Part shown: in pieces, positions 1-26,501 of the stretch
Position numbering within the stretch: the stretch's first letter is position 1
How the letters are laid out: each line of letters opens with the position of its first letter
IMG/VR virus record: IMGVR_UViG_2718217859_000002
DNA from: a virus
Taxonomy: Duplodnaviria > Heunggongvirae > Uroviricota > Caudoviricetes
Strand: one strand, 5' to 3'
Length of the DNA stretch: 26,681 bases
Position numbers and translations under genes: made by a program
The notes under the pieces: model-generated
Databases searched by the model: none
What the model saw: only the letters and a program-made list of their open reading frames with translations
What the model was told of the DNA's origin: nothing

Positions 1-621
1 ATGAAAATCCCTTTTAAGTCACCGGCCTTTAATGAGGAGGCATTCAATTGTCCGTTTTGCATGGCATATGCTCAACAGGATTGGTCTGGGTTGAGAGATA
101 AGTACGGAGCACTTAAAGAAGTTTCTCTTTCTAAATGCCGCAATTGCAGCCGGATTGCATATTGGTATGACAAGCGAATGATTGTCCCTCAAGCGAGTGG
201 GATTGAGCCTCCTAATACAGATATGCCTGCTGATTGTGTTGCCGATTACATGGAAGCAAGAAATATTTTCAATCTTTCACCTAAAGGTTCTGCTGCAATC
301 CTTCGTCTTTGCTTACAAAAATTGATGGTGCATCTCGGTTTAGAGGGAGACAAGATCAATGACGATATTGCAACTTTAGTTCAAAAAGGTTTGCCAGAAG
401 AGATTCAACAAGCGTTGGATATCTGTCGTGTTGTGGGTAATAACGCGGTGCATCCTGGTGAAATAAACATTGATGACTCTCCGGAAATTGCAGCTTCACT
501 TTTTGGATTGATAAATTTGATTGTTGAAGAAAGAATCACACGACCACAGAAAGTAGCGAAAATGTACGCGAATCTTCCCGCGGGAGCTAAAGCCGCTATC
601 GAAAGGAGAGATGCCAAATAA
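1..621 (+). CDS. Zn-ribbon plus DUF4145-like domain protein (206 aa)
   Basis: ORF from ATG at window position 1 (upstream not visible, could extend). N-terminal CxxC...CxxC; C-terminal region with [14 protein letters not shown] motif resembling DUF4145 as I recall it. Stop overlaps ATG of next ORF (TAATG). Confidence 0.55.
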
Positions 622-1040
622 TGCCTGGGATTTTAGCAAGCACAGCTACTGCTGTAGGTATCATTGACAAAGCTGTAGGTATTGCAAAGAAGCTCGCTGA
701 TGATGGCGGCGAACTTGATAAAGCAACGCTTAAACTTGAGCTTGCTAACCTCATGAGCGAACTTGCAAGTGTGAAGATGGAAGTAATCACAACCCAAGCA
801 CTTCTTTTTGAGGCTGAACAGAAAAATAAGCAGCTTGAAGATCAGCTAAAGGATAAGCACACCTTCACTTTCAAAGATGGACTTTACTGGAAAGAAGGCG
901 ATGAAACAGCCTACTGTCCCAAATGCTTTGAAGTTGATAAGGTGCAAACACACATGGTTTTTTCGCGTGCCGTTGGTCAATACTCCGCGAGTTGGTATTG
1001 CATTAATTGCAAAAACAGCATTTATCCAAAATCCCGTTAA
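621..1040 (+). CDS. coiled-coil protein with C-terminal CxxC...CxxC zinc ribbon (139 aa)
   Basis: Translationally coupled to upstream ORF; heptad-like K/E/L-rich middle; CPKC...CINC at C-terminus. Confidence 0.5.
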   Translation: MPGILASTATAVGIIDKAVGIAKKLADDGGELDKATLKLELANLMSELASVKMEVITTQALLFEAEQKNKQLEDQLKDKHTFTFKDGLYWKEGDETAYCPKCFEVDKVQTHMVFSRAVGQYSASWYCINCKNSIYPKSR

Positions 1041-1045
1041 AATCG

Positions 1046-1261
1046 TTATTCTTTGGCGGAAGTGTCAAATGTCTTTGCATAAGGGCATTTCCCCTTAGTT
1101 ACGTAAGTGAACAGATAATTGCTGTTCTGATACGTGCACAGCGTTTTTCCATTCTCCGTCTGTTCTTCCTGTGGGTTGACCATTGTTATCTGTCCGGCAT
1201 TCGATAGGGCAGGCAATAGCGCCAACGTCAGAACAAATAAGCATTTAATTTGGATCACCAT
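1046..1261 (-). CDS. small secreted Cys-containing protein (71 aa)
   Basis: Hydrophobic N-terminus ending ALSNA/GQ (signal-peptide-like); ATG overlaps stop of the upstream recombinase ORF (ATGGTGA). Confidence 0.4.
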   Translation of the reverse strand: MVIQIKCLFVLTLALLPALSNAGQITMVNPQEEQTENGKTLCTYQNSNYLFTYVTKGKCPYAKTFDTSAKE

Positions 1262-1833
1262 TCTAAAGAAAACTCCTCTGCTAAATCATCCTGCACATCC
1301 TGACCATACCCGATGTAATACATAGTAGAGCGCGGGTCTGTCTGTCCCAGGAAATGGGCTATTGTCTCTATAGCTACCCCTGCATCAAACATCACACGGC
1401 CCCGACTTTTACGTGGCGTATGGCATCCCACATTAGAGAATCCGGCTCTACGTCCCATTTTCCCAAATTCAGTGAATACCGTGTTACGGGTTACGGCTTC
1501 GCCTTTACTGCGTAATGTGCCAGCACTGAAAATAAAATCTGTAGCTACAGGCATCTTCGTTTGCTCTGCCTTGCGTTGTGCCACCACTGACAACATGGCG
1601 GGGGTAACTTTTGGCCTTACTACGTTTCCGGTTTTCTCCTGCTTTATCTTCAAATGAGATTGCCCCTCAACATCCTGATATTTTAGCTTGAGTACGTCAG
1701 AGACACGCAACCCGCTTTCATACATAAACACCCATAAGCAATAAAACAGGTTGGTTTTACTATTGCGCTGTAGCTCTGCTGCTACTGTTTTTACCTCGTC
1801 TACATTCTTGAGGGCTTGGCTAATACCTTTCAT
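1255..1833 (-). CDS. small tyrosine recombinase (phage integrase fold, about 192 aa)
   Basis: C-terminal catalytic-like residues (GLRVSD, CHTPRKSRG, STMYYIGY). ATG at 1833 has an AAGGAG SD 9 nt upstream; the longer ORF to 1929 lacks one. Confidence 0.6.
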   Translation of the reverse strand: MKGISQALKNVDEVKTVAAELQRNSKTNLFYCLWVFMYESGLRVSDVLKLKYQDVEGQSHLKIKQEKTGNVVRPKVTPAMLSVVAQRKAEQTKMPVATDFIFSAGTLRSKGEAVTRNTVFTEFGKMGRRAGFSNVGCHTPRKSRGRVMFDAGVAIETIAHFLGQTDPRSTMYYIGYGQDVQDDLAEEFSLEW

Positions 1834-1930
1834 CTTTATACTCTCCTTATTCGTTTCAATGAAAGTAGTTTTGATCATAAAACGATCATTTTCAATATGT
1901 TGCACGATACGTTTTATGGTTGAGAGCACT

Positions 1931-2017
1931 AAATGATCAAAAATGATTAAAGGGCTATTAAAAGGTGATTAAGACTGATTAAAAGGTATTAAAGGCGATT
2001 AAAACCGATTTAATTTA
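1931..2017. repeat. iteron-like array, about 7 copies of [G/T]ATTAAA(A)GG at 10-11 bp spacing
   Basis: Direct reading: tgattaaaggg, tattaaaagg, tgattaagac, tgattaaaagg, tattaaagg, cgattaaaacc, gatttaattt. Confidence 0.6.
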
Positions 2018-2243
2018 GGTGCGTCCGTCACCATCGTTGAACACAAAGATCAAGCCTCCCGATCTGATGCAGGCACAAATATGAAATATCTTATTGATTT
2101 ATAAGTAAATTTATTTTATTTAAGCTGTTCACAAATGATTTGTCTTGTCAAGAAATTTATTTTCGGCAGATGAAAAATAGCCAATAAATAGCGATAAATG
2201 GTCTATATATGCCTGAGTATATAAAGATCAGTAGGTTACAGAA

Positions 2244-2262
2244 TACACTTTGCTAAAGTGTA
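2244..2262. promoter_or_regulatory. perfect 8-bp-arm palindrome TACACTTT-gct-AAAGTGTA (operator-like)
   Basis: Inverted repeat read directly. Confidence 0.4.
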
Positions 2263-2647
2263 TCGAATCTGGGTTGTATTGCATTATAAGTGATAATAAT
2301 TCTTATTATTGAATTGTATGACAAATGATTATTCTCTTTGAGATGTGCACGAGTGAACATTCGTTCAACAAATGATAGAACGTTTATTGAGCAACAATTT
2401 TGCAGTGATGCGCTATATGCCGCATTACATAAGGCTTTGCTGATGATAATGTAAAAGTGAAGAAAGTAAGAATTGCACTTTGAATCTACCTTTCATTGCA
2501 TTTTTTAGTAGGGAATTACACGGAATAAGCTATGAATATTCTATGATTTACACGAGATATTCTTGCTGTTTAATTTCGGCTTTGGAGATCAGGCATTCGC
2601 AAGAATACGCTAATGCGTTGCCTGAAAAGCCATTGCACATAATAGAG

Positions 2648-2971
2648 GTGAGCGTATAGCGAACTATCAATGTGATCATTGCACGAATGATAATGAGTGG
2701 ATATAGATTCTATATATCGTTAGATTGTAGTTTGATAGTTAATGTGTAATGTAGATTGTATGAGCGTATAGCGAATGTTAGTTAGATCAACAACAAACTA
2801 ACCTTTAAATCTCTTTTATCTTCTCATAGATATGGCTATGCGTAGCAACCGAAGGTTAGCCATTAATCTATGCAGCCGTAAGGCTGTTTTGCATGTAATA
2901 GTTGTTTGTTGTTGGTAGTCGTTAGACAGTTACCAATTTATAGATCAGAGATAGATGTGAGCGTATAGCGA
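2648..2971. repeat. three dispersed copies of GAGCGTATAGCGA (2648-2662, 2761-2774, 2957-2971)
   Basis: Exact 13-14 nt direct repeats in an ORF-free AT-rich region. Confidence 0.6.
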
Positions 2972-3065
2972 TACACTAATCATAACAATATCTTCTTACT
3001 TTTTAGTTAGTTAGTTGTTAGTAGGTTATTGTTATGCGCGCTATTAGCGCATGTATAAAGGTATC

Positions 3066-3296
3066 ATTTTTATCTAAAGGGCTTTAGACATTTTTGATAC
3101 CTTTTTCATCTCTAAAAAAGTGTAATTTTTATCTAAAGGGGCTTTAGACATTTTTTACACCTTTTTCTGTGCAAGACACTTACCAGTGTGCACAATACTT
3201 ATGCTTTTCTAAAGCCGGGAATTTTTAAGTTTGATTGATCAATTGTTAACTTTAAAAGTTACTTTTAACAATCACTTAGACGATCTAAAGCCGCAA
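3066..3296. promoter_or_regulatory. operator cluster: two 40-bp direct repeats each with palindrome TCTAAAG(G)GGCTTTAGA (3073-3088, 3132-3148) plus TCTAAAG half-sites near 3208 and 3286
   Basis: Read directly; lies upstream of the plus-strand operon starting at 3520. Confidence 0.55.
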
Positions 3297-3437
3297 TTAA
3301 CATAATATAAGTTGACATGCAAGCACTTTTTACCATATAGTGCGGCCCCCTATCTATAAATCACACATTTTACCACTTGTCAATACCATAAATAACCTTA
3401 TAAAACAGGTGCTTAGTTTAGTATTGATAAATATTTA

Positions 3438-3466
3438 TTGACTAATACTATAAGATGGTGTATATT
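3438..3466 (+). promoter_or_regulatory. sigma70-like promoter TTGACT-N17-TATATT
   Basis: Hexamers at 3438-3443 and 3461-3466, about 55 nt upstream of the 3520 start; AGGAGG SD at 3507-3512. Confidence 0.45.
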
Positions 3467-3519
3467 AGCATTAGGGAATTGCATTCCGTAGTAACCAACA
3501 ACAACCAGGAGGTAAATAA

Positions 3520-3750
3520 TTGCGATGGTTTGACACTGAGCAAGTCTACATTGCCCTGAAATGTGGGGAAGTGAAACGCCACACAATAGCCAGCAATATG
3601 GGGCAATGCGTTACCCGTGGAGACGAGAAGCGTGCAAAGATGTTTCGTGATGCTCTTACACGGTATGACAGAGAACGCGCGATCATTGATGCGCAGAATG
3701 TGCCAGGGCGTAAGAAACGTGCTGGACGTAAATCACAATTAATCAACTAA
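3520..3750 (+). CDS. hypothetical basic protein (76 aa), TTG start
   Basis: AGGAGG 7 nt upstream of TTG; basic C-terminus (RKKRAGRK). Confidence 0.45.
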   Translation: MRWFDTEQVYIALKCGEVKRHTIASNMGQCVTRGDEKRAKMFRDALTRYDRERAIIDAQNVPGRKKRAGRKSQLIN

Positions 3751-3770
3751 CAAATAAAGAAAGGTGCTTT

Positions 3771-3932
3771 ATGGATATTCGATTCAATCCAGAAGTATTT
3801 GCAGAATTACGCACGATGGCAACACAACGAGGTATTAGTATTCCCGCGTTAGTTAACGTCATACTTAAAGAAAAAATCATCCTACATCAAGAGGAAAAAT
3901 ATGATAAAGACGATCAAACGAAAAATAGTTAA
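3771..3932 (+). CDS. ribbon-helix-helix (Arc/CopG-like) DNA-binding protein (53 aa)
   Basis: Below ORF-track size cutoff; translated by hand: MDIRFNPEVFAELRTMATQRGISIPALVNVILKEKI... fits a strand-helix-turn-helix pattern. AAGGTG SD upstream. 3' end overlaps next gene in another frame. Confidence 0.4.
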   Translation: MDIRFNPEVFAELRTMATQRGISIPALVNVILKEKIILHQEEKYDKDDQTKNS

Positions 3933-5385
3933 TAGCATTAATCCCGTTTACCTTGTAGATTCAATTTGCGGCTCAGGAAAGAGTCACCGCCTTATAGAAT
4001 ATATACTCGGCCTTCAAGATTCATCTGAAGCTATCCCGCAACGTGTTCTAATAGCCGTTCCTACGCATGAATTAGCCACAGAGACGCGTAATAAGATGTT
4101 AGACGCGGGAATACATGGTTATCATGTTAAAGTCGATAGCGGGGCTGTTTTAGCCCTTAAACAAACACTATCAGAATCCTTTGATTATCCGGTCGTTATT
4201 ACCACGCATCAGGCACTACAGGTTTTTTGTGAGAGAGCAACCTTTGATAGTGAGATGCAAAAACTCCTGTATCCCTTTCAAGTTTTCATTGATGAGATTC
4301 CGGCAGCTTGGCACGGCGATCACGCTACAGTTTTACATAGTGACTCTGTAACGGATAACTTCCCGTTTATGCAGTGGATGGAAGAGAGAGACGGATTATT
4401 ATTCCTTAAGTCTGACAATGAGAACGACCTTTACAAGTATTACCATGAACGCCACGCCGGATCGGATAGCCTGAAAGCGGTTATCTATGCTGTGCTGAAC
4501 GGTAGCGGCTTGCTTTATGGGGAAACAGATAAAGGGTACAGCTTCTTTGCGCAGACAGCTAACCCTGTGATCAATTGTGCAATGTGGTCTGAACGTCTAA
4601 CCATTATGGGGGCGGGTGTTAGCCGATCTGAATGGCGTTATGTAGCTGAGAACGTGGCTAAGGTGGAATGTATGCCAGCTCCTGATCATCTACTACCGGA
4701 CAACGACCGCAGAGAACATAAGAACACGCCTGTTAAACTGGTATCTGTGCTAAAGCCAGGAGTAAGAGCGACGCTTACGCAATTACAGGAAGTTTTTAAC
4801 AACCATCTACAGACGATTGCCCTTACTATGGGAAGTCGGTTTATCTTTGCAACGAACAACGACAAAGGGATCTGTAACTTCAAGACTATTGCACTCGATA
4901 GCCTGGAGGATAACGGGAAAGGAAAAGCGGTAAGCATGGCAAGCTACGGGCTGAACGTATACCAGAGCTACCACGCCGCCGCTTTCCTGGGGTGTGCTAA
5001 CCTCAATGCTACAGATAACAACCGATGGGCGCAATGGCTTAATTTCTCCGGTTATGACGCTGAGGCGGTGTTACGCCTTAAGGTTGAAGCAATGACCTAT
5101 GAGCGTTGCTACCAGTTTATAAGCCGCACAAGCATTCGTGATAGTTCCTGCAAAGAGGCTTTAACGTTTATCGTGCCTGATACGCAGTGTGCTGAATATA
5201 TCAAGCGTTGGTATCTTCCACAGGCTGAGATCACAACGTTAGGCATCGAGAAGGAAAGGAAGAAAGAGAAGGGCGCTAATACAAAGGCAGCTATTCAGGA
5301 ACTGAAAGCTAAAGGCATGAAGCAAAAAGCTGTAGCAGAGGCGTTAGGCTTAGGGATTGCAACGGTTAAACGTAACTGGAAATGA
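3901..5385 (+). CDS. P-loop NTPase, helicase-like (replication-associated?) with C-terminal HTH (494 aa)
   Basis: Walker A CGSGKSH near N-terminus, PTHELA (helicase motif Ia-like), TTHQAL, Walker B VFIDEIP; C-terminal KAVAEALGLGIATVKRN HTH. GAGGA SD upstream. Function inferred from motifs only. Confidence 0.55.
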   Translation: MIKTIKRKIVNSINPVYLVDSICGSGKSHRLIEYILGLQDSSEAIPQRVLIAVPTHELATETRNKMLDAGIHGYHVKVDSGAVLALKQTLSESFDYPVVITTHQALQVFCERATFDSEMQKLLYPFQVFIDEIPAAWHGDHATVLHSDSVTDNFPFMQWMEERDGLLFLKSDNENDLYKYYHERHAGSDSLKAVIYAVLNGSGLLYGETDKGYSFFAQTANPVINCAMWSERLTIMGAGVSRSEWRYVAENVAKVECMPAPDHLLPDNDRREHKNTPVKLVSVLKPGVRATLTQLQEVFNNHLQTIALTMGSRFIFATNNDKGICNFKTIALDSLEDNGKGKAVSMASYGLNVYQSYHAAAFLGCANLNATDNNRWAQWLNFSGYDAEAVLRLKVEAMTYERCYQFISRTSIRDSSCKEALTFIVPDTQCAEYIKRWYLPQAEITTLGIEKERKKEKGANTKAAIQELKAKGMKQKAVAEALGLGIATVKRNWK

Positions 5386-5404
5386 TCTACAACGGTGCAC
5401 ACAG

Positions 5405-5429
5405 AAAGGGGCAAATCAGCCCCTTTTTT
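5405..5429 (+). terminator. rho-independent terminator after helicase-like gene
   Basis: AAAGGGGC-aaatca-GCCCCTTT followed by a T run. Confidence 0.6.
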
Positions 5430-5588
5430 ATTGCCTGTAGTAAATAGCACGAATTGCTAAAGAAAAACTATTGACTATCTATAAACTTTATGATACTCAT
5501 AAGTATTGAGGTGCATACAACCTCAAAAGTAACGTATATAGAGTATCCCTTTATACATATATCATACAACAACCACAAGGAAAAGCAA

Positions 5589-5774
5589 ATGAAATATTTT
5601 TCAGTTTTAGATGTGCTGATGGCACTGATTGAAGGTCGAGTAAGCCGAAACCGGATTCTACAGAACCGTAACGCAGCACGCCGCAGCGGTTATCACGATC
5701 GTGAGGCTCTATTCACCGAAGCCCTGCAAAAGTTCGACCAGATTCGCAAACGTGAGAAGGAAGGGCAGCTATGA
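5589..5774 (+). CDS. hypothetical small protein (61 aa)
   Basis: ATG with AAGGAA SD; the track ORF from 5490 has no SD. Confidence 0.4.
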   Translation: MKYFSVLDVLMALIEGRVSRNRILQNRNAARRSGYHDREALFTEALQKFDQIRKREKEGQL

Positions 5775-6028
5775 AACATCATTTAAGCATTGGTAAGCAC
5801 GAATACGAGATCACGGAAAGCGGATACACACTGGCAAAACAGATCGCTGATAGCAATTATGAGCTACCCGCAATTATCAGCTTTCAGGGGCTACCCCATA
5901 GCAAGGAACACACACAGCACTGGTTAAATCACTTAAGCCATTTCGGGGTGATTCAGTATGAAGCTGTGAATAGTCAGACGTTCCGTTTGCTTGAGATAAA
6001 CCCGTTTGAATTGTGGGTGACGCTGTGA
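5771..6028 (+). CDS. hypothetical protein (85 aa)
   Basis: ATGA overlap with upstream ORF. Confidence 0.45.
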   Translation: MKHHLSIGKHEYEITESGYTLAKQIADSNYELPAIISFQGLPHSKEHTQHWLNHLSHFGVIQYEAVNSQTFRLLEINPFELWVTL

Positions 6029-6231
6029 TCATATTCGATAGCGAATTTTCACAAGAAATCTTTCTGCAATATTTACGGGAAAGAACGGGAATGATTCTGT
6101 TTGATTCTGAGTTTTCCGGTGTGGTAGGTGAGCAATTTTTATATGCTCTTCTCGATAGCCTAAGTAAACAAGGCTTATTGCAATATACAAAAACTCATAT
6201 GAAAGCATTTAGAATCGACTCTGTAGCTTAA
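6013..6231 (+). CDS. hypothetical protein with internal tandem repeat (72 aa), GTG start
   Basis: Protein-level duplication IIFDSEFSQEIFLQYL / ILFDSEFSGVVGEQFLYAL. Confidence 0.35.
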   Translation: MGDAVIIFDSEFSQEIFLQYLRERTGMILFDSEFSGVVGEQFLYALLDSLSKQGLLQYTKTHMKAFRIDSVA

Positions 6232-6269
6232 AACAAACAACTATCAAACATCTTGAAGGGTGGAAAACA

Positions 6270-6371
6270 ATGGAAAGCTTAATATTTTTCTTAGTATTCA
6301 TGATCGCTTCCTTTTTTAACACTGCAAGAAGAAAACCAAAACGAAGGGGAAGCAATGAGCAAGCAAAAAGG
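6270..6371 (+). CDS. 33-aa hydrophobic peptide (single TM helix plus basic tail)
   Basis: Hand-translated: MESLIFFLVFMIASFFNTARRKPKRRGSNEQAKR; GGTGGA SD-like upstream. Below track cutoff. Confidence 0.25.
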
Positions 6372-6735
6372 TAAGAAAAACGTAATAACAACTATTGGCG
6401 AAGCATGTGATCAGTATGCGTTAAACAATCCTCGCAAATATAACTACGAGCATGATGCACAACCAGGCGAAGAATTGATCTTTATACTTGAAGAACCAAG
6501 CCCAGAATTAACAGACGAAGAATTATCACTCATTCAAAGTATGGACGGTGTTTATTTTAATCCACGTCCACGCAAAACAACGGTTATAGATTCCAGTCTT
6601 CTAAAAAGATGGCAGTGTTTGGGGTTTTCAGACATGGCCCATTTTAGGGGGTATATGTCAATGAATAGCCTTCAATATGCAGGCGTGCGAGAAACCGAAT
6701 TACTTCTGCTTGATAAAGTAAACATTGACGATTAA
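6355..6735 (+). CDS. hypothetical protein (126 aa)
   Basis: GAAGGGGAAG SD-like upstream of ATG. Confidence 0.5.
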   Translation: MSKQKGKKNVITTIGEACDQYALNNPRKYNYEHDAQPGEELIFILEEPSPELTDEELSLIQSMDGVYFNPRPRKTTVIDSSLLKRWQCLGFSDMAHFRGYMSMNSLQYAGVRETELLLLDKVNIDD

Positions 6736-6776
6736 CAGCGTTTGCTGAATATAAACCTTAACAAAAGGAAAATAAA

Positions 6777-6998
6777 ATGATTAACAAAGCAATTTTAGAG
6801 ACAACCACTTTTCACGATCTTAAACTTCTTTCTGAATGCTTCATAAGCCTGATTGAACGAGCACAGGAAGAAAACGATCTCGGTTTACTCGATGATATTA
6901 TAGACAACATTGCAACTTATAAAATCCCGCTCACCATTGCTATGAAGAAAGCACGCGAAGCACAACAACAATTAGAACAATTAGAGGAAGTGGCATAA
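6777..6998 (+). CDS. hypothetical protein (73 aa)
   Basis: ORF with AAGGAAAA upstream. Confidence 0.45.
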   Translation: MINKAILETTTFHDLKLLSECFISLIERAQEENDLGLLDDIIDNIATYKIPLTIAMKKAREAQQQLEQLEEVA

Positions 6999-7306
6999 TG
7001 AGCACTACACACAACGTAACTATTCAGATGATGGATCTGATTATTTCTTTACAGAAGGCAGTTAATTCGGCTCTGACGTTTCCAACTGAGCTAACCATTG
7101 CACAGGCTGTTATTAACCTGGAATCGACGCGGGAAGCACTTGAACTACTTATTGCAGCGTGCGAACAATCCGAAGGTGCACAGGTTGAAGCTGACGAATT
7201 GTCTAATCTGATCATCGTTATTCATGACACCACTGAAATCATGAAAGAAGCGGTAGCAGACCTGCAACCACTCATTAATGAACTAATCGACAAGGCTAAC
7301 AACTAA
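6998..7306 (+). CDS. hypothetical acidic protein (102 aa)
   Basis: ATAATG overlap coupling with upstream ORF. Confidence 0.45.
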   Translation: MSTTHNVTIQMMDLIISLQKAVNSALTFPTELTIAQAVINLESTREALELLIAACEQSEGAQVEADELSNLIIVIHDTTEIMKEAVADLQPLINELIDKANN

Positions 7307-7515
7307 TGACAAAAACTAAACGTGTGCGCCTTCTGGCGCTCACAGAAGAAGGGAAAGCGGGTAATTGTTTCACAGTAGGTAAAGTGTATACCGGCTTACT
7401 CGACACTTACACCCGCCTGATGCACGTAACCGATGATAACGGTAACGATCAAACAATCGTTTTAGATGGTAATTGCGTATTTGGTGAATGGGAACTGACA
7501 ACCGAAAAGAATTGA
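7306..7515 (+). CDS. hypothetical protein (69 aa)
   Basis: TAATG overlap coupling. Confidence 0.45.
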   Translation: MTKTKRVRLLALTEEGKAGNCFTVGKVYTGLLDTYTRLMHVTDDNGNDQTIVLDGNCVFGEWELTTEKN

Positions 7516-7534
7516 AAAAACTTTGATTTAACTA

Positions 7535-7563
7535 TTGACTTTATAACAGAAATGTTATATAAT
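7535..7563 (+). promoter_or_regulatory. near-consensus sigma70 promoter TTGACT-N17-TATAAT
   Basis: Hexamers at 7535-7540 and 7558-7563 with a 17-nt spacer. Confidence 0.5.
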
Positions 7564-7569
7564 AAGAAG

Positions 7570-7810
7570 TGTAGGGGAAAGAATCTAAAACAGGTGTTAG
7601 CTGGCGTTAATCCTTCTCCCGATTTTAATCCTACACGAAAGCGGGGTAGACCTCAAGGGGTCGCGCCCTATCTAACCTGCCTCGCTTTCCCTTTACCAGT
7701 TTTTTTAGAAATTGTTTCCCTCGTTAATAGTTTCATATATTTTCCTTATTGCTTTATCAAAATTGTGTCTTAAGAATGCAGGGGCTACGGATTTGGCCCC
7801 TCATCTTTTT
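7570..7810 (+). ncRNA. candidate small non-coding RNA (promoter to terminator, no convincing ORF or SD)
   Basis: Predicted start about 7570; GC stem pairing 7634-7645 with 7681-7691 followed by a T run near 7700; second terminator at 7781-7810. Confidence 0.3.
7781..7810 (+). terminator. rho-independent terminator
   Basis: GGGGC-loop-GCCCC followed by TCATCTTTTT. Confidence 0.55.
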
Positions 7811-7957
7811 AACCAACTGCGAAGCATGAAACACTTTCTAAAAACACTGTTTACAGTGTCTATAAACCCCGTATAAACAAATAACGGTGTATATTGTTTC
7901 TTGACAACAATTCTACTAAGCCAAAAGCTGAATATGTTTTTTGTTTGTTGGTGTTTA

Positions 7958-8146
7958 TTAAGGTGCCAATCTTAGAACGCTGAAAGCGTGGATGATCCCC
8001 GAAATCATCTCGGCACCGCCTCCTATTAAAATGAGAATCCAAAAGGTTTGAAAGTTAATAGTAGTTCCTAAAAGTCTGATCGATGCATCCACATTGTGAA
8101 AGACAGCGATTAGCCATCGCACGAATAACAGGTTTATAGATTCCAA
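7958..8146 (-). CDS. small hydrophobic protein (62 aa), TTG start
   Basis: Perfect AGGAGG SD 8 nt upstream of TTG (minus strand); hydrophobic sequence with GGG turn. Confidence 0.3.
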   Translation of the reverse strand: MESINLLFVRWLIAVFHNVDASIRLLGTTINFQTFWILILIGGGAEMISGIIHAFSVLRLAP

Positions 8147-8310
8147 AGGGGGCGACCTCCTAAGCGCCTACTCCCTGTAAGCCTGTTATTCAACCCCTCA
8201 AGGGTATATAACAATAAGCAATCTTATTCTTATATGTCCTCCTCTTTAAGTTCATATAACTGCGATTTAGTAACACTCTATAACATCCTTCAAATGTTGT
8301 ATTCATAAAG

Positions 8311-8340
8311 CCGGAAGCTTTCCCCTTCCGGTTTTATTTT
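8311..8340 (+). terminator. rho-independent terminator just upstream of structural operon
   Basis: CCGGAAG-ctttccc-CTTCCGG followed by TTTTATTTT. Confidence 0.6.
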
Positions 8341-8382
8341 GTCAGCACTAAACAAGAATGTTAGAAAAAAGGTAAAGCAACA

Positions 8383-8598
8383 ATGCAAAATCTCATTCTA
8401 AAGAATGGTAATGAAGAATTGATTATCACTAATGAAGCATTCAACGCTACGGCTTATATGTTGGGAATCACTCCCACAGAATTGAAAAAACATTGTGATA
8501 AGCTTTTTAAGTCTGCTGATGAACAGAAACCTACTATGCAGGATCTGATTAAAGCAAAAGCAGAACAAATCAAACAATCCAAAAAAGGAAACAATTAA
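8383..8598 (+). CDS. hypothetical small protein (71 aa)
   Basis: AAGGTAAAG SD upstream; first gene of structural cluster. Confidence 0.45.
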   Translation: MQNLILKNGNEELIITNEAFNATAYMLGITPTELKKHCDKLFKSADEQKPTMQDLIKAKAEQIKQSKKGNN

Positions 8599-8601
8599 TT
8601 T

Positions 8602-8973
8602 ATGGCTATTATTAATATGAGCGATCTGTTTCCAGTTCGCAAATCATTTACCGATATCGTTTCATATGCAACTGATGAGTTCGGTTGTGTGCAATCTTTT
8701 ACCGTTGATCTGGCGGTTGATGTTGAATGTGGCGATCTGATTACCAGTGACGGCGCTGAATATGTAAGCGGCGGCGATGTTCTTGTCGTTGTGTCTGATG
8801 CGGTATCCGCTGGCGACGCTAAAACCGTTAACGTGCTGCGTAGCAATGCCGGACTGGTTTGCATCAAATCCGATGCTCTGAATGTTGAAGGCGCTGTGAA
8901 AGAAGCCGCTATTGCTGCCCTGGCTGCAAAAGGTTTCCAGATGGCTGGCTTTAATACTGTATTCACATCTTAA
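8602..8973 (+). CDS. putative head decoration-like / minor virion protein (123 aa)
   Basis: Beta-rich V/D/A/G/S composition; sits immediately upstream of the capsid-like gene (decoration-then-capsid order as in lambda D-E). Homology not verified. Confidence 0.4.
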   Translation: MAIINMSDLFPVRKSFTDIVSYATDEFGCVQSFTVDLAVDVECGDLITSDGAEYVSGGDVLVVVSDAVSAGDAKTVNVLRSNAGLVCIKSDALNVEGAVKEAAIAALAAKGFQMAGFNTVFTS

Positions 8974-8991
8974 TATAAAGGAATAAAAATA

Positions 8992-10020
8992 ATGATTATT
9001 GGTAATGAATCCGTCGATCTGGCTCCGCTGTTTAGTCTGCACGACTCTCGCAACTTCCTGTTAACTTCTCTCGACTTTACTGATCCGGTAGGTGTGAGTT
9101 CTCATAAAGTGGCTGTTAGCCAACTGGTGGAAACTAACGAATCTCTGTTCAACAAAGAAACCTCTCGTTTCTCTTCTGAACATAACGTGACTAAACGTGA
9201 ACAGGGTAAAGAATTTTTAGTAGAGATCCCCTACTTCCTGCGTGAAGATATGATTAAGCCGCAAGACGTGCAAGGCAAACGTAAGCCAGGCGCTACCGTT
9301 GAAGAAACTCTGACAGATATCTACGCGGAATATGTTGCTAAGCACCACATTGCTTTCCAGCGTACTAAAGAGAGCGTGCTGGCTGCTTCCCTGTTTAGTG
9401 GTCGCACCTACACCCCTAAAACTGACGATGTGCTGATCCAGTGGGGCGATCTGTTCAGTGCTGTTCCGATGACTGCAACCATCGACGCATCAAGCACCAC
9501 ACCTTCTATGGTGTTCCAGCAATTCGATCAGATGCATACAGACGTTATCACTAAAGCACAAAGCCAGGCGGCTGCTGTAGAGCGTATCGTTGTATTCTGT
9601 AAACCTGCCGCTTTCAACGCTATCCGTTACAGTGCTGGCATGGTTAACGCGTTCCAGTATGCAAGCCCTACCGACGACGCAAACATCGTTTATAGCGTGC
9701 GCTCCCTGCTGCCAGGTGTGACTACCTTCACTATTCCAGGGACTAATATCGATATCGTCAAAGTTACCGATCCGCTGCTGCTGGCGCATATGACTTCTGA
9801 TGCGGTGGCTGTTCCGAAGTTCGCTAAAGGCTCTAACGTCTATCAGAACATTTTCGGCGCTCCGTCTTCAACGTTCGACCTGCTGAATTCTGGATCGGCT
9901 GAATATTACAGCTATGCATTTAGCCCAGCACGTAACGACGCTGTAAACGTAGTTACCGAGAATAGCCAGATGGTTGTAAACCACGGCGTAGGCTTCACTG
10001 TACAGATCACAGTAGCGTAA
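8992..10020 (+). CDS. putative major capsid protein (342 aa; lambda gpE-like size and architecture)
   Basis: Size, position and a 30-aa helix-prone segment (TLTDIYAEYVAKHHIAFQRTKESVLAASLF) compatible with an HK97-fold spine helix; strong SD. Inference, not search-based. Confidence 0.5.
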   Translation: MIIGNESVDLAPLFSLHDSRNFLLTSLDFTDPVGVSSHKVAVSQLVETNESLFNKETSRFSSEHNVTKREQGKEFLVEIPYFLREDMIKPQDVQGKRKPGATVEETLTDIYAEYVAKHHIAFQRTKESVLAASLFSGRTYTPKTDDVLIQWGDLFSAVPMTATIDASSTTPSMVFQQFDQMHTDVITKAQSQAAAVERIVVFCKPAAFNAIRYSAGMVNAFQYASPTDDANIVYSVRSLLPGVTTFTIPGTNIDIVKVTDPLLLAHMTSDAVAVPKFAKGSNVYQNIFGAPSSTFDLLNSGSAEYYSYAFSPARNDAVNVVTENSQMVVNHGVGFTVQITVA

Positions 10021-10070
10021 TAAAGCGTTAATAGTCGTTTCCTGTGCGACTGGAAATAAAACAGGCAATA

Positions 10071-10137
10071 AGGGCAAAAGGGATTAACTAACCTGTAAAG
10101 CAAATACAGTAACGGATCTCTTTGCCCTTTTTGTTTT
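10071..10137 (+). terminator. structured terminator after capsid-like gene
   Basis: 9-bp stem AGGGCAAAG/CTTTGCCCT enclosing a 39-nt loop with nested CTGTA/TACAG hairpin, then TTTTGTTTT. Confidence 0.45.
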
Positions 10138-10170
10138 CTACCGTTTATTAAATATTGTGAGAGAAAAACC

Positions 10171-10362
10171 ATGAACACACAAAACAACAATCCCGTTGAA
10201 ATCTTGAAAGCTGTTTCCACCTTACCGGAAGATATTCTGAATATCTCTCAAGTATGCAAGTTTTTAGGGATCTCTAATACCGCTGTACGTCAAAGAATCT
10301 TTGCTACTGGCTGTTCCGCTATGGAAGCAGTGCAATATTACGTAGCAAAACAAAATAAGTAA
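10171..10362 (+). CDS. small HTH DNA-binding protein (63 aa)
   Basis: ISQVCKFLGISNTAVRQRIF helix-turn-helix pattern. Confidence 0.45.
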   Translation: MNTQNNNPVEILKAVSTLPEDILNISQVCKFLGISNTAVRQRIFATGCSAMEAVQYYVAKQNK

Positions 10363-10380
10363 AAGATAAAGGAAAATATT

Positions 10381-12222
10381 ATGGATCTGAATATCTCAAC
10401 CTTAACAAACAAGGTTGTATTTAAGGTGGATTTTGCATCATTACAGAAAGCACGCGATGCAGGTAAGAAATTCCAGAAAGAAATGGAAAACCTAACCAAT
10501 CCAACATTGAAAGGGAAGAAGGCTAAACGAGCTATAGACGATGCTAACGATCTGGTAAAAGCCCGTAAAGCTACACAGGCTAAAGCTGATGCCAAAGCGT
10601 CAGACAAGCAAGCTCAAACCGATAAGAAGAACGCTGATAAGGTGGCAAAGGCAGAAGCTAAAGCGAAGGCTAAAGCCGCTATAGCTGCCGATAAACAGAT
10701 CCGCGCTAAAGCAACGATAGCAGAGAAGGCAGAGATTAAACGCCAGCAAGCTTTTAGACAGCTTGAAGGCATCAAGAAAGGGCGTATGGGTGACGGTATG
10801 GACTCCGCCCAATACTACAAAACATTACAATACATCAAACAACAAACGGCAGCTTACGAGAAAGGCGCTATTAGTCAGGCTAAGATGAATCACCTGATCC
10901 GTGATCGCATCACGTTAGAACGCCGTGCGGCTGCTGTTAAAGCTCGCCAGGTGGCGGCTGATGGCGGTAAATATCCACATATGGCTAAACAGCTTAAAGG
11001 TGGTCATATAGGCGGTGGTGTAGGTGCAATGGTGGGCGGTGCTGCTCTCACTGCTGCTACTCTCGGCGGTGCTGCGATATTCAATACCGTAACCGATCAG
11101 GCAAGCAAGATCACAGACACTAACCGCAAGGCAAAAGCTGTTAACGTCAACACTAACGCCCTGTTAGCACTCAACCAGTACGGCTTAGAGCACGGGGTAG
11201 ATAGTTCCGTTGATCAACGTCAAGATAACCTTAAAGACGTTCAAGAACGTTTAGGCGAGACGATAGGGAATACTAAGTGGGATGCTAAAAAGGGTCGCTG
11301 GGCGGGGGGTAACGGTGCCGTTGATAACATCCTTAACAAATATGGTTGGAGTCCTGAACAGGTTAAAGGTTTCCAAACTGATCCATTAGGTTTCCTGGGT
11401 GCTGTAGTGAAAGAAGGCGAACGCCGTGGACTCTCTGACCAGGAGCAGGGTCACATGCTCGAAGACCTTGGAAATGATTTACAATATTTCCGTGGGGCTT
11501 TCAGTCGTAACGGTGAAGAGTTAAATAAAACTCTCGTTAAGATGCAACAAGCCAACGCCACCTATACACAAGCGGATCTTGACGCTGCTGAACGTCTGCA
11601 AGCTGTACAGGCTAATATGAATATGGCCTGGGAAGGTAGTAAGAAAGCTATCATGACGGGATTCGGTGAAGAGTTCGACGCTCAAGCTGGTGAAGAGTGG
11701 GCGCAAATGTTGAAAGATCTCAATCCTCTGTTTAAAGAACTTGGAAGCTCAACGGCTGAAATGATGAGTGCCTTTGCTGGTGCTGTATCGTGGCTTACTG
11801 CTGCATACCAGAATATAAATCCAGAGAACAAACATGAAAACCTTGATTCGTCCGGTATGTATTATAAGGACTCGTTTGTAGGTGGTATGGTTGATTGGGG
11901 TCGTAGTGCTTTAGGCTTATCGCCTATCCCTGGCACGGAAGACAAGCCAACAACTGGCGGAACTGCAATTCAGAACTATGCAAGCCCGTCCGAGAACGTG
12001 CAATCCCTGAAACAGAACGTTAGCCGTGATCTGAACACTACCCCATCTATGACGTATGCGCCAAGCATTGTCGTAAACGTGCCAGAAAGTAAGGTTGATG
12101 TGAATATCGCCCCTGATGGCTCTCAGCTTGGATCATACCTCGACTACAAAGTGGGAAGTATCCAACAAGATTTTGAACGTAGTTTCACGTTGGCGGCTCT
12201 GTCTGGGCAAGCACCAAGTTAA
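10381..12222 (+). CDS. large coiled-coil protein with Gly-rich hydrophobic segment (613 aa), tape-measure/pilot-like
   Basis: K/A/E-rich N-terminal coiled coil; GGHIGGGVGAMVGGAALTAATLGGAAIF segment; AAGGAAAA SD. Confidence 0.55.
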   Translation: MDLNISTLTNKVVFKVDFASLQKARDAGKKFQKEMENLTNPTLKGKKAKRAIDDANDLVKARKATQAKADAKASDKQAQTDKKNADKVAKAEAKAKAKAAIAADKQIRAKATIAEKAEIKRQQAFRQLEGIKKGRMGDGMDSAQYYKTLQYIKQQTAAYEKGAISQAKMNHLIRDRITLERRAAAVKARQVAADGGKYPHMAKQLKGGHIGGGVGAMVGGAALTAATLGGAAIFNTVTDQASKITDTNRKAKAVNVNTNALLALNQYGLEHGVDSSVDQRQDNLKDVQERLGETIGNTKWDAKKGRWAGGNGAVDNILNKYGWSPEQVKGFQTDPLGFLGAVVKEGERRGLSDQEQGHMLEDLGNDLQYFRGAFSRNGEELNKTLVKMQQANATYTQADLDAAERLQAVQANMNMAWEGSKKAIMTGFGEEFDAQAGEEWAQMLKDLNPLFKELGSSTAEMMSAFAGAVSWLTAAYQNINPENKHENLDSSGMYYKDSFVGGMVDWGRSALGLSPIPGTEDKPTTGGTAIQNYASPSENVQSLKQNVSRDLNTTPSMTYAPSIVVNVPESKVDVNIAPDGSQLGSYLDYKVGSIQQDFERSFTLAALSGQAPS

Positions 12223-12280
12223 TGATAAAGAGAATGTTTAATCACAATCTAAAACACTCTTATAAGGAATTAAGCATATA

Positions 12281-12314
12281 AGAGGCTCCCATTACAAGGA
12301 AGCCTCTTTATTGC
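12281..12314. terminator. hairpin terminator between convergent genes
   Basis: AGAGGCTCC-attacaa-GGAAGCCTCT then TTTATTG. Confidence 0.5.
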
Positions 12315-12329
12315 GCCTATGGCGTTGTT

Positions 12330-13550
12330 TTAAGCCTTAAAATCAATATTTAATTCATATCTTACTAATTCTACATATTCAGCTAATTCTTGAATGCTTG
12401 CCCCTTGTGAGTAGGTGCGAAAGGCTTCTGTTTTAGCTATCTGCTCTGTATGTCCGGTAATGGCTCCGATCCGCTGTTCAGGCACTCCTGCACGATCAAG
12501 ACAAGTGATAAACATCCCGCGCAAGCTGTGAAAGCATTGTCTATTTGTAGCGATTGGCAAGACGCTACGACGTAAACGTGAGAATGCTTGAGAATAGAAC
12601 GGGCCTTTCTTACCGTCGATTCTTTTTACTTTGTTCGAGTGAGGGAACAAATATTCACCATAATTATGATTTAAATATTCATCGACAATAATCGATAGTC
12701 TCGAATGTATCGGAACGTGTCTGATCCCTGCTTTAGTCTTACTTTTGCTGATATAAAAACAGCGTATTCCTTCCACAGTTACAACCTCTGACTTTTTCAG
12801 AGTTGCCAGTTCGTCTAATCTGCATCCTGAAAACAAGCCCATTAAAATAATATTTCTGATCTCCGGCTCCGCTGCATCAAGTAGCTTTTGCATTTGTTCA
12901 GGTGTAAACGGTTGATAACTCTCGATTGTGCGACGTGCTTCGAGGTTATGACCGTGAAAAGGGTTACTGTCTGGTATTCCGTCATAACGGCGTTTAGCAA
13001 ATTCATAGAGCGATCCTAAGCATGTAAGCCAGTTTTGACGAGATTGATCGGCTGCTCCTCGTTGCTTCTGGTCATCTAAGAATACTGTTACAAGCCGTCT
13101 GCCTATTTTCTCAATATGAATATCATCTTTCTGAATGCTTTGTAAAAATAGCTCAACGGCCCTTGCTGATTTCTGTAGTGTTGAGTATGAACGACGCTCT
13201 CTGTAGCATTCGGCGTATTCGTCACGTATTAGGCACAGGGAAGGCGGTGCATAACCGCGTTTTACAGCTCTTTGCGTGTTTTTATTGGCACTTGCCTCTG
13301 AATGTAAGGATTCAATAGCTTTTTGTAACCTCCTTTCGGGGTTATCAGGATTATGTTTCCGCTTTAGTTCCTCCCATTCTAATAACAGATGGTTTCTGAA
13401 TCTTCTCGCCTCATTCAGATCTCGTGTAGATGTGCTTTTTCTCCACAACTTGTAAGGGTAAAGATGGCGTAAGTATTTAGGAACAAAAATCTGAAACATC
13501 CAGATCCCATCTTTTCTCTTAAATAAGTATGCTTGGCTCTTGATCGACAC
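12330..13550 (-). CDS. int: tyrosine integrase of element 1 (406 aa), GTG start
   Basis: C-terminal HSLRGMFITCLDRAGV...GHT...Y catalytic-like motifs; N-terminal YLFKRKDGIWMF arm-binding-like hairpin; GAGGA SD. Confidence 0.85.
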   Translation of the reverse strand: MSIKSQAYLFKRKDGIWMFQIFVPKYLRHLYPYKLWRKSTSTRDLNEARRFRNHLLLEWEELKRKHNPDNPERRLQKAIESLHSEASANKNTQRAVKRGYAPPSLCLIRDEYAECYRERRSYSTLQKSARAVELFLQSIQKDDIHIEKIGRRLVTVFLDDQKQRGAADQSRQNWLTCLGSLYEFAKRRYDGIPDSNPFHGHNLEARRTIESYQPFTPEQMQKLLDAAEPEIRNIILMGLFSGCRLDELATLKKSEVVTVEGIRCFYISKSKTKAGIRHVPIHSRLSIIVDEYLNHNYGEYLFPHSNKVKRIDGKKGPFYSQAFSRLRRSVLPIATNRQCFHSLRGMFITCLDRAGVPEQRIGAITGHTEQIAKTEAFRTYSQGASIQELAEYVELVRYELNIDFKA

Positions 13551-13635
13551 GATAATGATCCTCTATTATCACGTAATCAGTTACCTATGATTGATCACAA
13601 AATCTTTATTTTACAGCAGGTTATTGTGGGTTTCC

Positions 13636-13657
13636 TCGATTCCCTTCGCCCGCTCCA
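13636..13657 (+). other. att core: 22-nt fragment matching the 3' end of tRNA-Gly(CCC) (TCGATTCCCTTCGCCCGCTCCA)
   Basis: Ends in CCA; acceptor 3' strand CGCCCGC pairs with the GCGGGCG 5' end of tRNA-Gly; matches my recollection of E. coli glyU. No 5' tRNA body present. Confidence 0.6.
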
Positions 13658-13821
13658 AACAAACATTTCTCAACGTCTACTAAAGTCCATCAAACCCACG
13701 AATATCAAGCCTTCCAGGCATTTTCATAGTTTATTAACGTCTACTCACAACTACCAGAATCTACACACAGAAGTGTATAGTAATGCGTATAGGACAAAAT
13801 TTATTTTTTGGAGCTATACAC

Positions 13822-15036
13822 ATGCTGCTTTCAGACCTTGCCATCAGGCGCGCGAAGCCGAAAGAAAAGGCTTATACACTCAATGACGGTAACGGGCTTT
13901 CGTTGCTCATTGAGCCGAACGGTTCGAAAGGGTGGCGACTGCGCTACAGGTTTGCAGGAAAGCCCAAAATGTTGTCGTTGGGTGTGTACCCTGATGTGTC
14001 TCTGTCTGATGCCAGGGCGGCAAGGGATGAGGCTAAAAGGCTTCTTGCTGGTGGTATAAATCCAAGTGAGGCCAGAAAAGCCCAAAAGCGAGAACAGGCG
14101 AGCAAATTTGGCAATACTTTTGAGGGTATTGCTCGCGAATGGTACGAAAAGCGGATCGACAGGTGGTCATCGTCATACGCCGAGGAAATGATCGAGACGT
14201 TTGAAAAAGATGTTTTTCCGTACATTGGCGGTAGGCCGATCGCAGAAATTAAGCCGATGGAATTGCTGGCGGTTCTTTCCCGTCTTAATGACCGTGGTGC
14301 GACTGAAAAATTGCGTAAGGTTCGCCAGCGATGCGGCGAGGTGTTCCGGTACGCAATCATCACCGGACGCGCCGAATATAATCCAGCCCCTGACCTGGTG
14401 AGCGCATTTGCTCCACATAAAAAAGAGCATTACGCCTATTTGAAGGCCGACGAACTGCCGGAATTTTTCCGCGTTTTTAATACGTACACCGGAAGCCAGA
14501 TCGTCAAACTGGCAATGCGGCTATTAATTCTGACAGGTGTCAGACCCGGGGAATTACGGCAGGCAGAATGGCAGGAGATCGATTTTGATAATCGTTTGTG
14601 GGAAGTGCCTAAAGAACGAATGAAGATGCGCCGTCCGCATTGTGTGCCATTACCAGAACAGGCGATAAAAATACTGGAGCAGTTAAAAAACATGACAGGC
14701 CAGTATCAGTTTATTTTCCCCGGTCGTATTCACCACAGTAAGCCAATGAGTGAAATGGCGATGAATGTGCTCATTCGTCGTATCGGCTATGCCGGGCGCG
14801 TTACTGGTCATGGATTCCGGCACACCATGAGCACCATTTTGCATGAGCAGGGCTATAACACCGCGTGGATAGAGACGCAGCTCGCACACGTCGATAAAAA
14901 CTCAATTCGTGGCACATACAACCATGCGCAATATCTGGATGGTCGCCGGGAGATGCTCCAGTGGTATGCCGACTATATGGATTCGCTCGAGCATGGCGGA
15001 AATGTGGTGCATGGTGAGTTCGGAAAATGCGGGTGA
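13822..15036 (+). CDS. int: P4-type tyrosine integrase of element 2 (405 aa)
   Basis: N-terminal LSDLAIRRAKPKEKAYTLNDGNGLSLLIEPNGSKGWRLRYRF arm-binding domain typical of P4/CP4-57-type integrases; C-terminal HGFRHT...Y; GGAG SD. Track ORF begins earlier at 13783 without SD. Confidence 0.9.
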   Translation: MLLSDLAIRRAKPKEKAYTLNDGNGLSLLIEPNGSKGWRLRYRFAGKPKMLSLGVYPDVSLSDARAARDEAKRLLAGGINPSEARKAQKREQASKFGNTFEGIAREWYEKRIDRWSSSYAEEMIETFEKDVFPYIGGRPIAEIKPMELLAVLSRLNDRGATEKLRKVRQRCGEVFRYAIITGRAEYNPAPDLVSAFAPHKKEHYAYLKADELPEFFRVFNTYTGSQIVKLAMRLLILTGVRPGELRQAEWQEIDFDNRLWEVPKERMKMRRPHCVPLPEQAIKILEQLKNMTGQYQFIFPGRIHHSKPMSEMAMNVLIRRIGYAGRVTGHGFRHTMSTILHEQGYNTAWIETQLAHVDKNSIRGTYNHAQYLDGRREMLQWYADYMDSLEHGGNVVHGEFGKCG

Positions 15037-15134
15037 CTGGTTGAGTATACAGTAGTAGACTTTGAGCACCTAAAAAGGCTGATGCAAACAGAGCTGGATC
15101 GGCCTTAACATTAGACCGCTTGAAGGGGGAGAAT

Positions 15135-15848: not shown

Positions 15849-16107
15849 ATAGTGGTCGCTATTCCAGAAAAATGGTGGTTTCCTTTCAAAAAAAAGTAAC
15901 CACCAATGCAGATTAAATCGTAAGAACAGTAATTTTTCTTCGTGTTTCACGTCAGCATGATACTTAAAATAGTAAACGCCATTATTAAAAAAAGGTGGAG
16001 CTATTTCACTGAAATGGTATTCGCCATTCATAATGGTAAGCATCTATAAATATCACTTTTCTTAATGCAAGCTATGTACACCTTTATAGACGTTACAAGG
16101 TGAATAT

Positions 16108-26490: not shown

Positions 26491-26501
26491 AGGTGTAAAT
26501 C

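Follow-up and report, generated by a model that had tools for sequence, protein, structure and literature searches.

The tyrosine recombinases TnpI, acting at the IRS of Tn4430, and Cre, acting at loxP of P1, resolve multimers at a site beside their own gene, and both proteins (284 and 343 amino acids, aa, respectively) have a core-binding domain. Here, we describe a 192-aa small tyrosine recombinase, which we refer to as sTyr, encoded at positions 1255-1833 on the minus strand of a 26,681-nucleotide (nt) stretch of Caudoviricetes DNA (IMG/VR record IMGVR_UViG_2718217859_000002; this whole stretch is called the window below). Like the genes for TnpI and Cre, the sTyr gene is preceded by a short repeat cluster in its promoter region, present once per replicon, and its role would likewise be one other than integration. 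Unlike those systems, sTyr has no core-binding domain and no defined inverted core site, and we found no sequence relationship between it and TnpI or Cre beyond the superfamily.

Other site-specific recombinases also invite comparison. FimB and FimE (with HbiF, IpuA/B, and FimX) resemble sTyr in being ~200 aa long, in consisting essentially of the catalytic domain, and in having an Escherichia coli host. Unlike them, sTyr falls far under the corresponding NCBIfam cutoffs, and no invertible segment, conserved flanking inverted repeats, or orientation polymorphism was seen at its locus. XerA, XerC, and XerD provide the best sequence and structure matches for the sTyr catalytic domain; Xer proteins, however, have an N-terminal core-binding domain and score above 220 to 335 bits on their own models, and sTyr does neither. 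The serine resolvases of Tn3 and gamma-delta, with their upstream res sites, are analogues of sTyr by position only, since their fold and chemistry are unrelated.

In length, single-domain organization, and invariant R, K, H, R, and Y residues, sTyr matches a family of ~180- to 195-aa catalytic-domain-only proteins (phrog_216, "integrase") in which we found no member with a tested function. Firmicute plasmids often carry distant relatives of sTyr (tblastn returned 930 records). A 195-aa member from a Lactobacillus plasmid has been named INT_C_like_3, and a relative on the Lactobacillus pRC plasmids sits beside replication and toxin-antitoxin genes (PMC7117683). A relative on an Oceanisphaera plasmid has the same kinds of neighbors, and that of Streptococcus phage IPP44 lies between the late activator and HNH/terminase genes. 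The enterobacterial sTyr clade differs from the rest of the family: it is 21 to 33% identical to most members, has Gln at the His-II position, is carried on a chromosomal capsid-encoding island, and forms an operon with the gene for a mini-protein. We regard sTyr as a minimal tyrosine recombinase of an uncharacterized family that probably serves such an island as an optional site-specific recombination module.

The recombinase and its coupled mini-protein

The sTyr gene occupies an open reading frame (ORF) at 1255-1929 (minus strand), within which the NCBI/RefSeq start, the ATG at 1833, gives a protein of 192 aa; AAGGAGAG precedes this ATG by 8 nt. Residues 12 to 174 match the Pfam family PF00589 (Phage_integrase) at 58.7 bits against a cutoff of 27.1, and comparison with PHROGs identified phrog_216 at an E value of 1e-27. 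An AlphaFold2 (AF2) model built on 51 relatives has a mean pLDDT of 93 and, in Foldseek, superposes on the catalytic domains of XerA, lambda Int, XerH, Cre, and IntI, with TM-scores of 0.75 for XerA (query normalized) and 0.70 to 0.73 for the lambda Int catalytic core (target normalized). Neither the model nor the structure matches include a counterpart of the core-binding domain. In an alignment of 51 family members, which are 21 to 91% identical to the sTyr of the window, residues R43, D46, K67, H138, R141, K142, T170, and Y173 are invariant. The His-II residue (the "LGH" position) is Q164 in the enterobacterial clade and His in most of the other aligned relatives.

The ratio of nonsynonymous to synonymous substitution (dN/dS) for sTyr is 0.08 to 0.10, with dS values of 0.4 to 1.2, and all eight loci compared, which represent six genera, have a gene of exactly 192 codons. 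Among 1.84 billion representative proteins, a profile search returned 2296 matches; the best full-length ones are almost all 180 to 195 aa and align end to end, which indicates that the small size is a property of the family and not the result of truncation. sTyr is a complete catalytic domain encoded by an intact gene under strong purifying constraint and, judged by its conservation, is probably a functional tyrosine recombinase. It falls under the cutoff of every curated NCBIfam family, and the Xer models of that collection assign it 33 to 43 bits against cutoffs of 220 to 335, in alignments limited to the catalytic part. PADLOC gave no match for sTyr or for the mini-protein.

sTyr is an accessory module of its island and not the island's integrase, since a separate integrase of 406 aa adjoins the right attachment site (attR) and many islands of the same family have no sTyr. 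The integrase gene lies at 12330-13550 (minus strand) and encodes DUF6538, SAM-like, and catalytic domains by Pfam. An earlier annotation based on the letters of the window (the sequence-only reading) had placed a full-length integrase at the right end of the element and had taken the second recombinase, of FimB/FimE size, to be something other than an integrase. Both statements agree with what we found, and the four features to which it drew attention (the ~192-aa recombinase, the mini-protein, the repeats, and the second integrase) are all present where it located them.

Translationally coupled to sTyr on its downstream side is a gene for a 71-aa mini-protein that is predicted to be secreted (1046-1261, minus strand). 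The mini-protein ATG and the sTyr stop codon share 7 nt (ATGGTGA), and Klebsiella, Salmonella, and Kluyvera loci retain this overlap. Read from its sequence, the N terminus (MVIQIKCLFVLTLALLPALSNA/GQ) is laid out in n, h, and c regions like a signal for signal peptidase I, consistent with the coupled signal-peptide gene that had been proposed at this position; the mature part has two Cys residues. The protein weakly matches phrog_4641, an entry of unknown function, and belongs to a family that, clustered at 90% identity, comprises at least 494 clusters in Enterobacteriaceae, each carrying the name hypothetical. Across loci it diverges more than sTyr does (41 to 80% versus 88 to 91% identity). 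Its gene directly follows a small recombinase gene in every sampled context except one (locus L002), where a serine recombinase is encoded ~800 bp away on the opposite strand. In Klebsiella and in the P0214 loci (which one source names Citrobacter freundii), for example, it lies directly downstream of a gene for a 192- or 186-aa Phage_integrase-domain protein. The operon structure of sTyr and mini-protein is conserved. The mini-protein would be a separate, moron-type product carried on the sTyr transcript, and a periplasmic role of that type is our guess.

The sTyr promoter region and its phased repeats

The upstream regions of the eight loci can be aligned over a conserved stretch of ~110 bp with three TGATCA motifs. 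Over the 112 bp compared, this stretch is 71 to 88% identical, against 58 to 70% at third codon positions of sTyr, and is therefore conserved above synonymous sites. In the window, the corresponding promoter and leader of the operon (1834-1930, minus strand), with its three GATC-centered TGATCA motifs, is a candidate core recombination site or operator. It appears to contain a promoter of the form TTGAAA-17-AATGAT, with two GATC sites in the spacer.

GATC is over-represented around the operon, with three sites in the 110-bp upstream region (1868-1941) and one at the overlap of sTyr and the mini-protein gene (1255-1261). In the Klebsiella versions of the island, a gene for a Dam-family methyltransferase (L006, 8495-9184) lies ~800 bp upstream of sTyr. 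In Salmonella arizonae (L014), both proximal GATC sites are changed to TATC.

Directly distal to the outermost TGATCA motif is a phased repeat array (1931-2016) of seven to eight units, (G/T)AT(T/C)AA(A/G), spaced every 10 to 11 bp. Tandem Repeats Finder reported period-10 and period-21 arrays at 1931-2010, and a pattern scan for KATYAAR found seven same-strand matches at 1935, 1945, 1956, 1967, 1977, 1987, and 1997, against a background of 52 matches on both strands of the 26.7 kb. The phasing is ~10.3 bp, and the array lies ~100 to 180 bp upstream of the sTyr start codon. Its units (TGATTAAA) are one base away from the conserved TGATCAAA, and a TGATCAAA-like motif beside the promoter is kept in every version of sTyr. 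The array is found in the E. coli and Klebsiella versions (L006 and L021-L024 for the latter, where the spacer sequence is different). Versions without the array keep just the conserved, TGATCA-rich promoter region of ~110 bp. From these sequences, we read the array as lineage-specific extra copies of the TGATCAAA-like motif. The sequence-only reading had described GATTAAA iterons abutting the promoter side of the recombinase gene. Phased repeats do abut it, but exact GATTAAA occurs only three times in the array, and the term iterons needs qualifying given the lineage-specific nature of the copies.

A position weight matrix built from the array units found no second cluster anywhere in the window, and the cluster is single copy per island. 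Identical arrays occur in islands with differing replication genes, so that the array goes with the recombinase module: a DEAD-box helicase is encoded in the window and none in L004, and Klebsiella islands have either DUF6945/Dam or DEAD modules. Because the same array stands beside different replication genes, it is not an origin for a particular initiator, and we ruled it out as the replication origin of the island. A similar layout, with a site in front of the gene, is found for the Oceanisphaera plasmid relative (34% identical), upstream of which four copies of a 13- to 15-bp motif form two inverted pairs and end 9 bp before the start codon.

Farther upstream, a pattern scan detected a terminator-like hairpin oriented like sTyr (2047-2065, minus strand), and other loci have a GC-rich hairpin at the equivalent position; this hairpin possibly serves as an insulator. 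It is followed by an AT-rich noncoding stretch (2066-2355) that is part of the sTyr module, since homology to the serine recombinase-encoding islands described below begins only at 2356; parts of it are conserved, as read by eye, in Klebsiella L006. Comparison of islands showed that the next noncoding block (2356-3300) is common to the island family with or without sTyr, and it is thus unlikely to be an sTyr-specific site. This block holds a core of ~200 nt (~2377-2553) and two 59- to 60-bp repeats that contain palindromes (3054-3167).

Small recombinases at a shared island position

Among 5426 complete E. coli genomes, 35 have the sTyr module, which also occurs in Klebsiella, Salmonella, Enterobacter, Kluyvera, and Buttiauxella, and the architecture of the host island is the same at all sTyr loci with enough flanking sequence. 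The island family as a whole occurs in roughly 13% of complete E. coli genomes. In E. coli YZLc1-3 (L020), homology to the window begins at 2356, and immediately to its left lies a gene for a 183-aa serine recombinase (L020, 5219-5900) in the same orientation as sTyr. This protein is closest to the Tn3 and gamma-delta resolvases. Upstream of its gene are res-like, inverted GTGTAGTGAT motifs (GTGTAGTGAT...ATCACTACAC), and downstream is a gene for a YecR-family lipoprotein. This arrangement was found in 291 of the 5426 E. coli genomes. In four further loci (L025-L028, 5435-6207), the same place is taken by a 186-aa small tyrosine recombinase with a canonical His-II and, in the alignment, about one-quarter identity to sTyr, followed by a member of the mini-protein family. 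By sequence comparison, then, three different small site-specific recombinases can occupy one and the same island position, in most cases with the gene for a small exported protein behind them. This shared position is our main argument that sTyr acts like the small resolvase-type enzymes.

Based on this positional analogy and on conservation, we tentatively favor a role in which sTyr acts at a DNA site in its own promoter region and keeps the excised island monomeric, whether by multimer resolution or by cyclization. We infer by analogy the DNA that sTyr binds, the positions at which it cuts, and resolution as the selected function. sTyr would bind TGAT(C/T)AAA-type motifs in its upstream region, which comprise a conserved proximal group (1834-1945) and, in E. 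coli and Klebsiella, the extra phased array (1945-2016). Binding would repress the sTyr promoter, and autoregulation at this same site is likely. Once the excised, replicating island forms dimers or multimers, sTyr would recombine two copies of the site, with the extra repeats serving as accessory sites as in TnpI/IRS of Tn4430 or Cre/loxP of P1. As a variant, sTyr would circularize injected, terminally redundant DNA in the manner of Cre. A more specific proposal, which we regard as doubtful, is that three unrelated enzymes fill a single "small recombinase plus small secreted protein" position and that the phased, half-site-like repeats of sTyr replace the core-binding domain in building the synapse, with Cre-like circularization or monomerization after transfer.

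Several observations weigh against resolution at this site. His-II, part of the catalytic set, is Gln in the sTyr clade, and a protein that has no core-binding domain leaves specific DNA recognition unaccounted for. The array is absent upstream of sTyr in Salmonella, Enterobacter, Kluyvera, Buttiauxella, and one IMG/VR contig, and the sTyr proteins of the genera without it are still 88 to 91% identical. No clear core site, in the sense of two inverted arms around a 6- to 8-bp spacer, could be defined in the upstream DNA. In addition, TGAAAATGATCAT, from the sTyr promoter region, recurs ~55 bp upstream of the start of the unrelated 186-aa recombinase (L025-L028), which argues, as far as the sequences go, for a promoter or host factor element and not a recombinase-specific site. 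Finally, the function is dispensable, since a small recombinase is lacking altogether from many members of this island family, L011 and L012 among them.

Alternatively, sTyr may be mainly a DNA-binding regulator or architectural protein that acts on the phased repeats and TGATCA motifs to control the operon or neighboring noncoding functions, with no selection for strand exchange. The Gln at His-II would fit such a role, as would helically phased repeats (10.3 bp) ~100 to 180 bp upstream of the start codon, two GATC sites in the putative promoter spacer, and the persistence of the operon with the secreted protein where a distant relative takes the place of the recombinase. Equally, the "iterons" may be phased A-tracts (curved DNA that is H-NS- or UP-like) that tune the promoter. 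However, a protein that only binds DNA would hardly be expected to keep an invariant nucleophile Tyr with R, K, H, and R, or to be under such strong constraint; sister islands have a bona fide serine recombinase at this position; and the array is missing from most genera, although their proteins are 88 to 91% identical. We therefore consider regulation as the main function unlikely. It is considerably less plausible still that sTyr is a decaying integrase remnant, to which we give almost no weight. sTyr does lack the N-terminal domains of ordinary integrases, and some copies are truncated or fused (L018, L019, and P0011, which is frameshifted). The sequence-only reading had named a truncated remnant with disrupted catalytic residues as the finding that would overturn its proposal; instead, the catalytic residues are invariant, dN/dS is ~0.08 at dS values of up to 1.2, all eight loci in six genera encode the full 192 aa, a length of 180 to 195 aa is family wide, and the fold is predicted to be complete with high confidence.

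That reading had proposed a resolvase or an invertase. Of the two, a resolvase is best supported by context, namely the serine recombinase at the same position and the single-copy motif cluster. A FimB/FimE-like invertase that flips a promoter-bearing segment, making the mini-protein or the early genes of the island phase variable, is improbable. The size and catalytic-domain-only architecture of sTyr are as in FimB and FimE, there are weak matches to two NCBIfam "tyrosine-type DNA invertase" models (E values of 2e-7 and 6e-7), and inverted similarity exists both between the array and the palindromes at 3057-3105 (imperfect) and between 1832-1845 and 2215-2228 (14 nt). Classification with hidden Markov models, a check suggested at the outset, nevertheless places sTyr in PF00589 and outside the FimB/FimE family, with 29.2 and 30.6 bits from NF007370 and NF007371 against cutoffs of 221 and 222 and higher scores from the Xer models. 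A second suggested check, for inverted repeats, found no pair positionally conserved across the eight loci. The 35 complete E. coli genomes are collinear over 1255-3300 as far as they share it, in assemblies, which report the majority orientation only, and they differ in structure only in whether the 59-bp palindrome repeat is present once or twice. About 16 other loci (from Klebsiella, Salmonella, Enterobacter, Kluyvera, Buttiauxella, and IMG/VR) have the same arrangement, the palindromes are common to islands without sTyr, and the repeat motif forms one cluster only. Inversion between the array and the palindromes at 3054-3167, or between the 14-nt pair, was ruled out by this collinearity, by the nonconserved pairs, and by the presence of the palindromes in islands that have no sTyr. 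It is also very unlikely that sTyr exchanges cargo in integron-like fashion, swapping defense or moron genes between attL and itself, or inserts the island at a secondary site. The DNA from attL to sTyr does vary: the window has an anti-phage gene (RAZR) and a 139-aa protein gene there, UPEC132 has two small genes unrelated to these, and Klebsiella has Rap1a with others. However, the swap junctions have no repeated or TGATCA-like motif and one of them cuts inside the mini-protein gene, which makes the swaps look like ordinary recombination. Moreover, the variable region is downstream of sTyr and not on its promoter side, the island has no second motif cluster, and the island architecture is the same at every sTyr locus whose flanks were compared. 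Cassette exchange of the integron type was rejected, as no site was found at the junctions.

If sTyr does resolve multimers at its own promoter, this would supply a function (resolution or cyclization at such a site) for a large orphan family of minimal tyrosine recombinases on plasmids and phages, of which sTyr would be the first functionally assigned member. It would also suggest that an enzyme without a core-binding domain could gain site specificity via phased repeat arrays, and at 192 aa, with a short cis site, sTyr would offer a compact tool for genetics. If this inference fails, sTyr would be an ordinary accessory gene annotated "tyrosine-type recombinase/integrase." The position of sTyr is a conserved accessory one in a family of capsid-encoding Enterobacteriaceae islands that is abundant, apparently uncharacterized, and equipped with anti-phage cargo such as RAZR.

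Truncated or fused copies of sTyr were found at three loci. In an Enterobacter metagenome-assembled genome (L019, 9346-10270), the N-terminal 236 aa of an island-type integrase are fused directly to the last 85 aa of sTyr, and the mini-protein gene comes next; a deletion appears to have removed everything in the island between its two tyrosine recombinase genes. Another partial copy lies at L018 10001-10288, and the P0011 copy is frameshifted. In three draft assemblies (L008, L014, and L017), contigs end 550 to 850 bp upstream of sTyr, at the multicopy conserved noncoding block, and these ends are probably repeat-induced assembly breaks and not signs of inversion.

The host island and its other features

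The window matches E. coli chromosomes. In EC21GDE043, the 14.3-kb island separates tRNA-Gly from yqeG, and a 22-bp direct repeat that corresponds to the 3' end of tRNA-Gly marks its two ends. One copy of the repeat, attR (TCGATTCCCTTCGCCCGCTCCA), is at 13636-13657 (plus strand), and attL is ~600 bp to the left of the window. From attL, the island consists of ~460 bp of noncoding DNA, the cargo, the leftward mini-protein and sTyr genes, ~1.7 kb without annotated genes, and a rightward operon headed by strong promoter-like sites at 3312 and 3438, followed by genes for a DEAD-box helicase-like protein, a capsid protein, a 613-aa protein, and the 406-aa integrase. A search of the literature found nothing specific on this type of island or on small tyrosine recombinases. 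Our scan of IMG/VR yielded one contig, apparently with an integrated copy, and was uninformative on packaging.

The cargo of the window includes a PD-T7-4 gene with DUF4145 by Pfam (1-621, plus strand; PADLOC PDLC04109, E = 6e-90); this anti-phage RNase has recently been renamed RAZR (PMC13017515). The start of the next ORF, for a 139-aa protein (621-1040, plus strand), overlaps the RAZR stop codon; no family match for this protein was found in Pfam, PADLOC, or NCBIfam. In other strains, the two genes are replaced together. The ~460 bp of noncoding DNA between tRNA-Gly/attL and the cargo (L001, 19400-19860) is 97% conserved despite differing cargo. A second RAZR-like gene overlaps another integrase gene in a neighboring island of 28A18CPO003A (L004, 28828-29487).

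The genes for the capsid and 613-aa proteins lie within 8992-12222. The major capsid protein is of the lambda E type and is at most ~25% identical to phage capsids in the collection, the best matches being to 150-kb Escherichia/Klebsiella myoviruses and Pseudomonas phages. The 613-aa protein that follows matches a PHROG annotated as tape measure (E = 1e-65), and some sister islands additionally encode a "phage baseplate protein."

Within the noncoding block shared by the island family, the ~200-nt segment (2337-2553) has matches at 76 to 97% identity in unannotated DNA of ~739 of the 5426 complete E. coli genomes, always within capsid-encoding islands of this type, at several chromosomal sites; for the block as a whole, the count is ~710 to 740 genomes. 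It may be a protein-binding, origin, or packaging site. RNA structure in the core was considered and found unsupported, the consensus fold being weak (-16 kcal/mol for four sequences), and an Rfam scan of 1-14000 returned nothing relevant, with only a chance-level 22-bit match to EGFOA-assoc-1 at 7366-7563. The repeats at 3054-3167 are two tandem units of 59 to 60 bp, each with a palindrome of ~48 bp (AAAGGTATCATTTTTATCTAAAGGGCTTTAGACATTTTTGATACCTTT), located ~150 to 250 bp upstream of the strong rightward promoter-like sites. Only one unit is present in many strains, and the repeat is single copy in L004. Half of the palindrome resembles the first two iterons of the array (16 of 23 positions by eye). 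The AT-rich, gene-free region also has three copies of TGAGCGTATAGCGA(A/T), at 2649-2663, 2761-2775, and 2958-2972, and a Klebsiella island has a different set there, with five copies of GTGACAAAATGGCAC; both sets are possibly origin iterons.

Finally, a second element is integrated in tandem at the regenerated tRNA-Gly repeat and occupies 13783-26681 of the window. It encodes a P4-type integrase with an arm-binding domain, an AntA antirepressor, a D5-type primase-helicase, ProQ/FinO and DUF2213 proteins, and a 345-aa ORF, and it looks like a satellite of the phage-inducible chromosomal island (PICI) or capsid-forming PICI (cfPICI) type.

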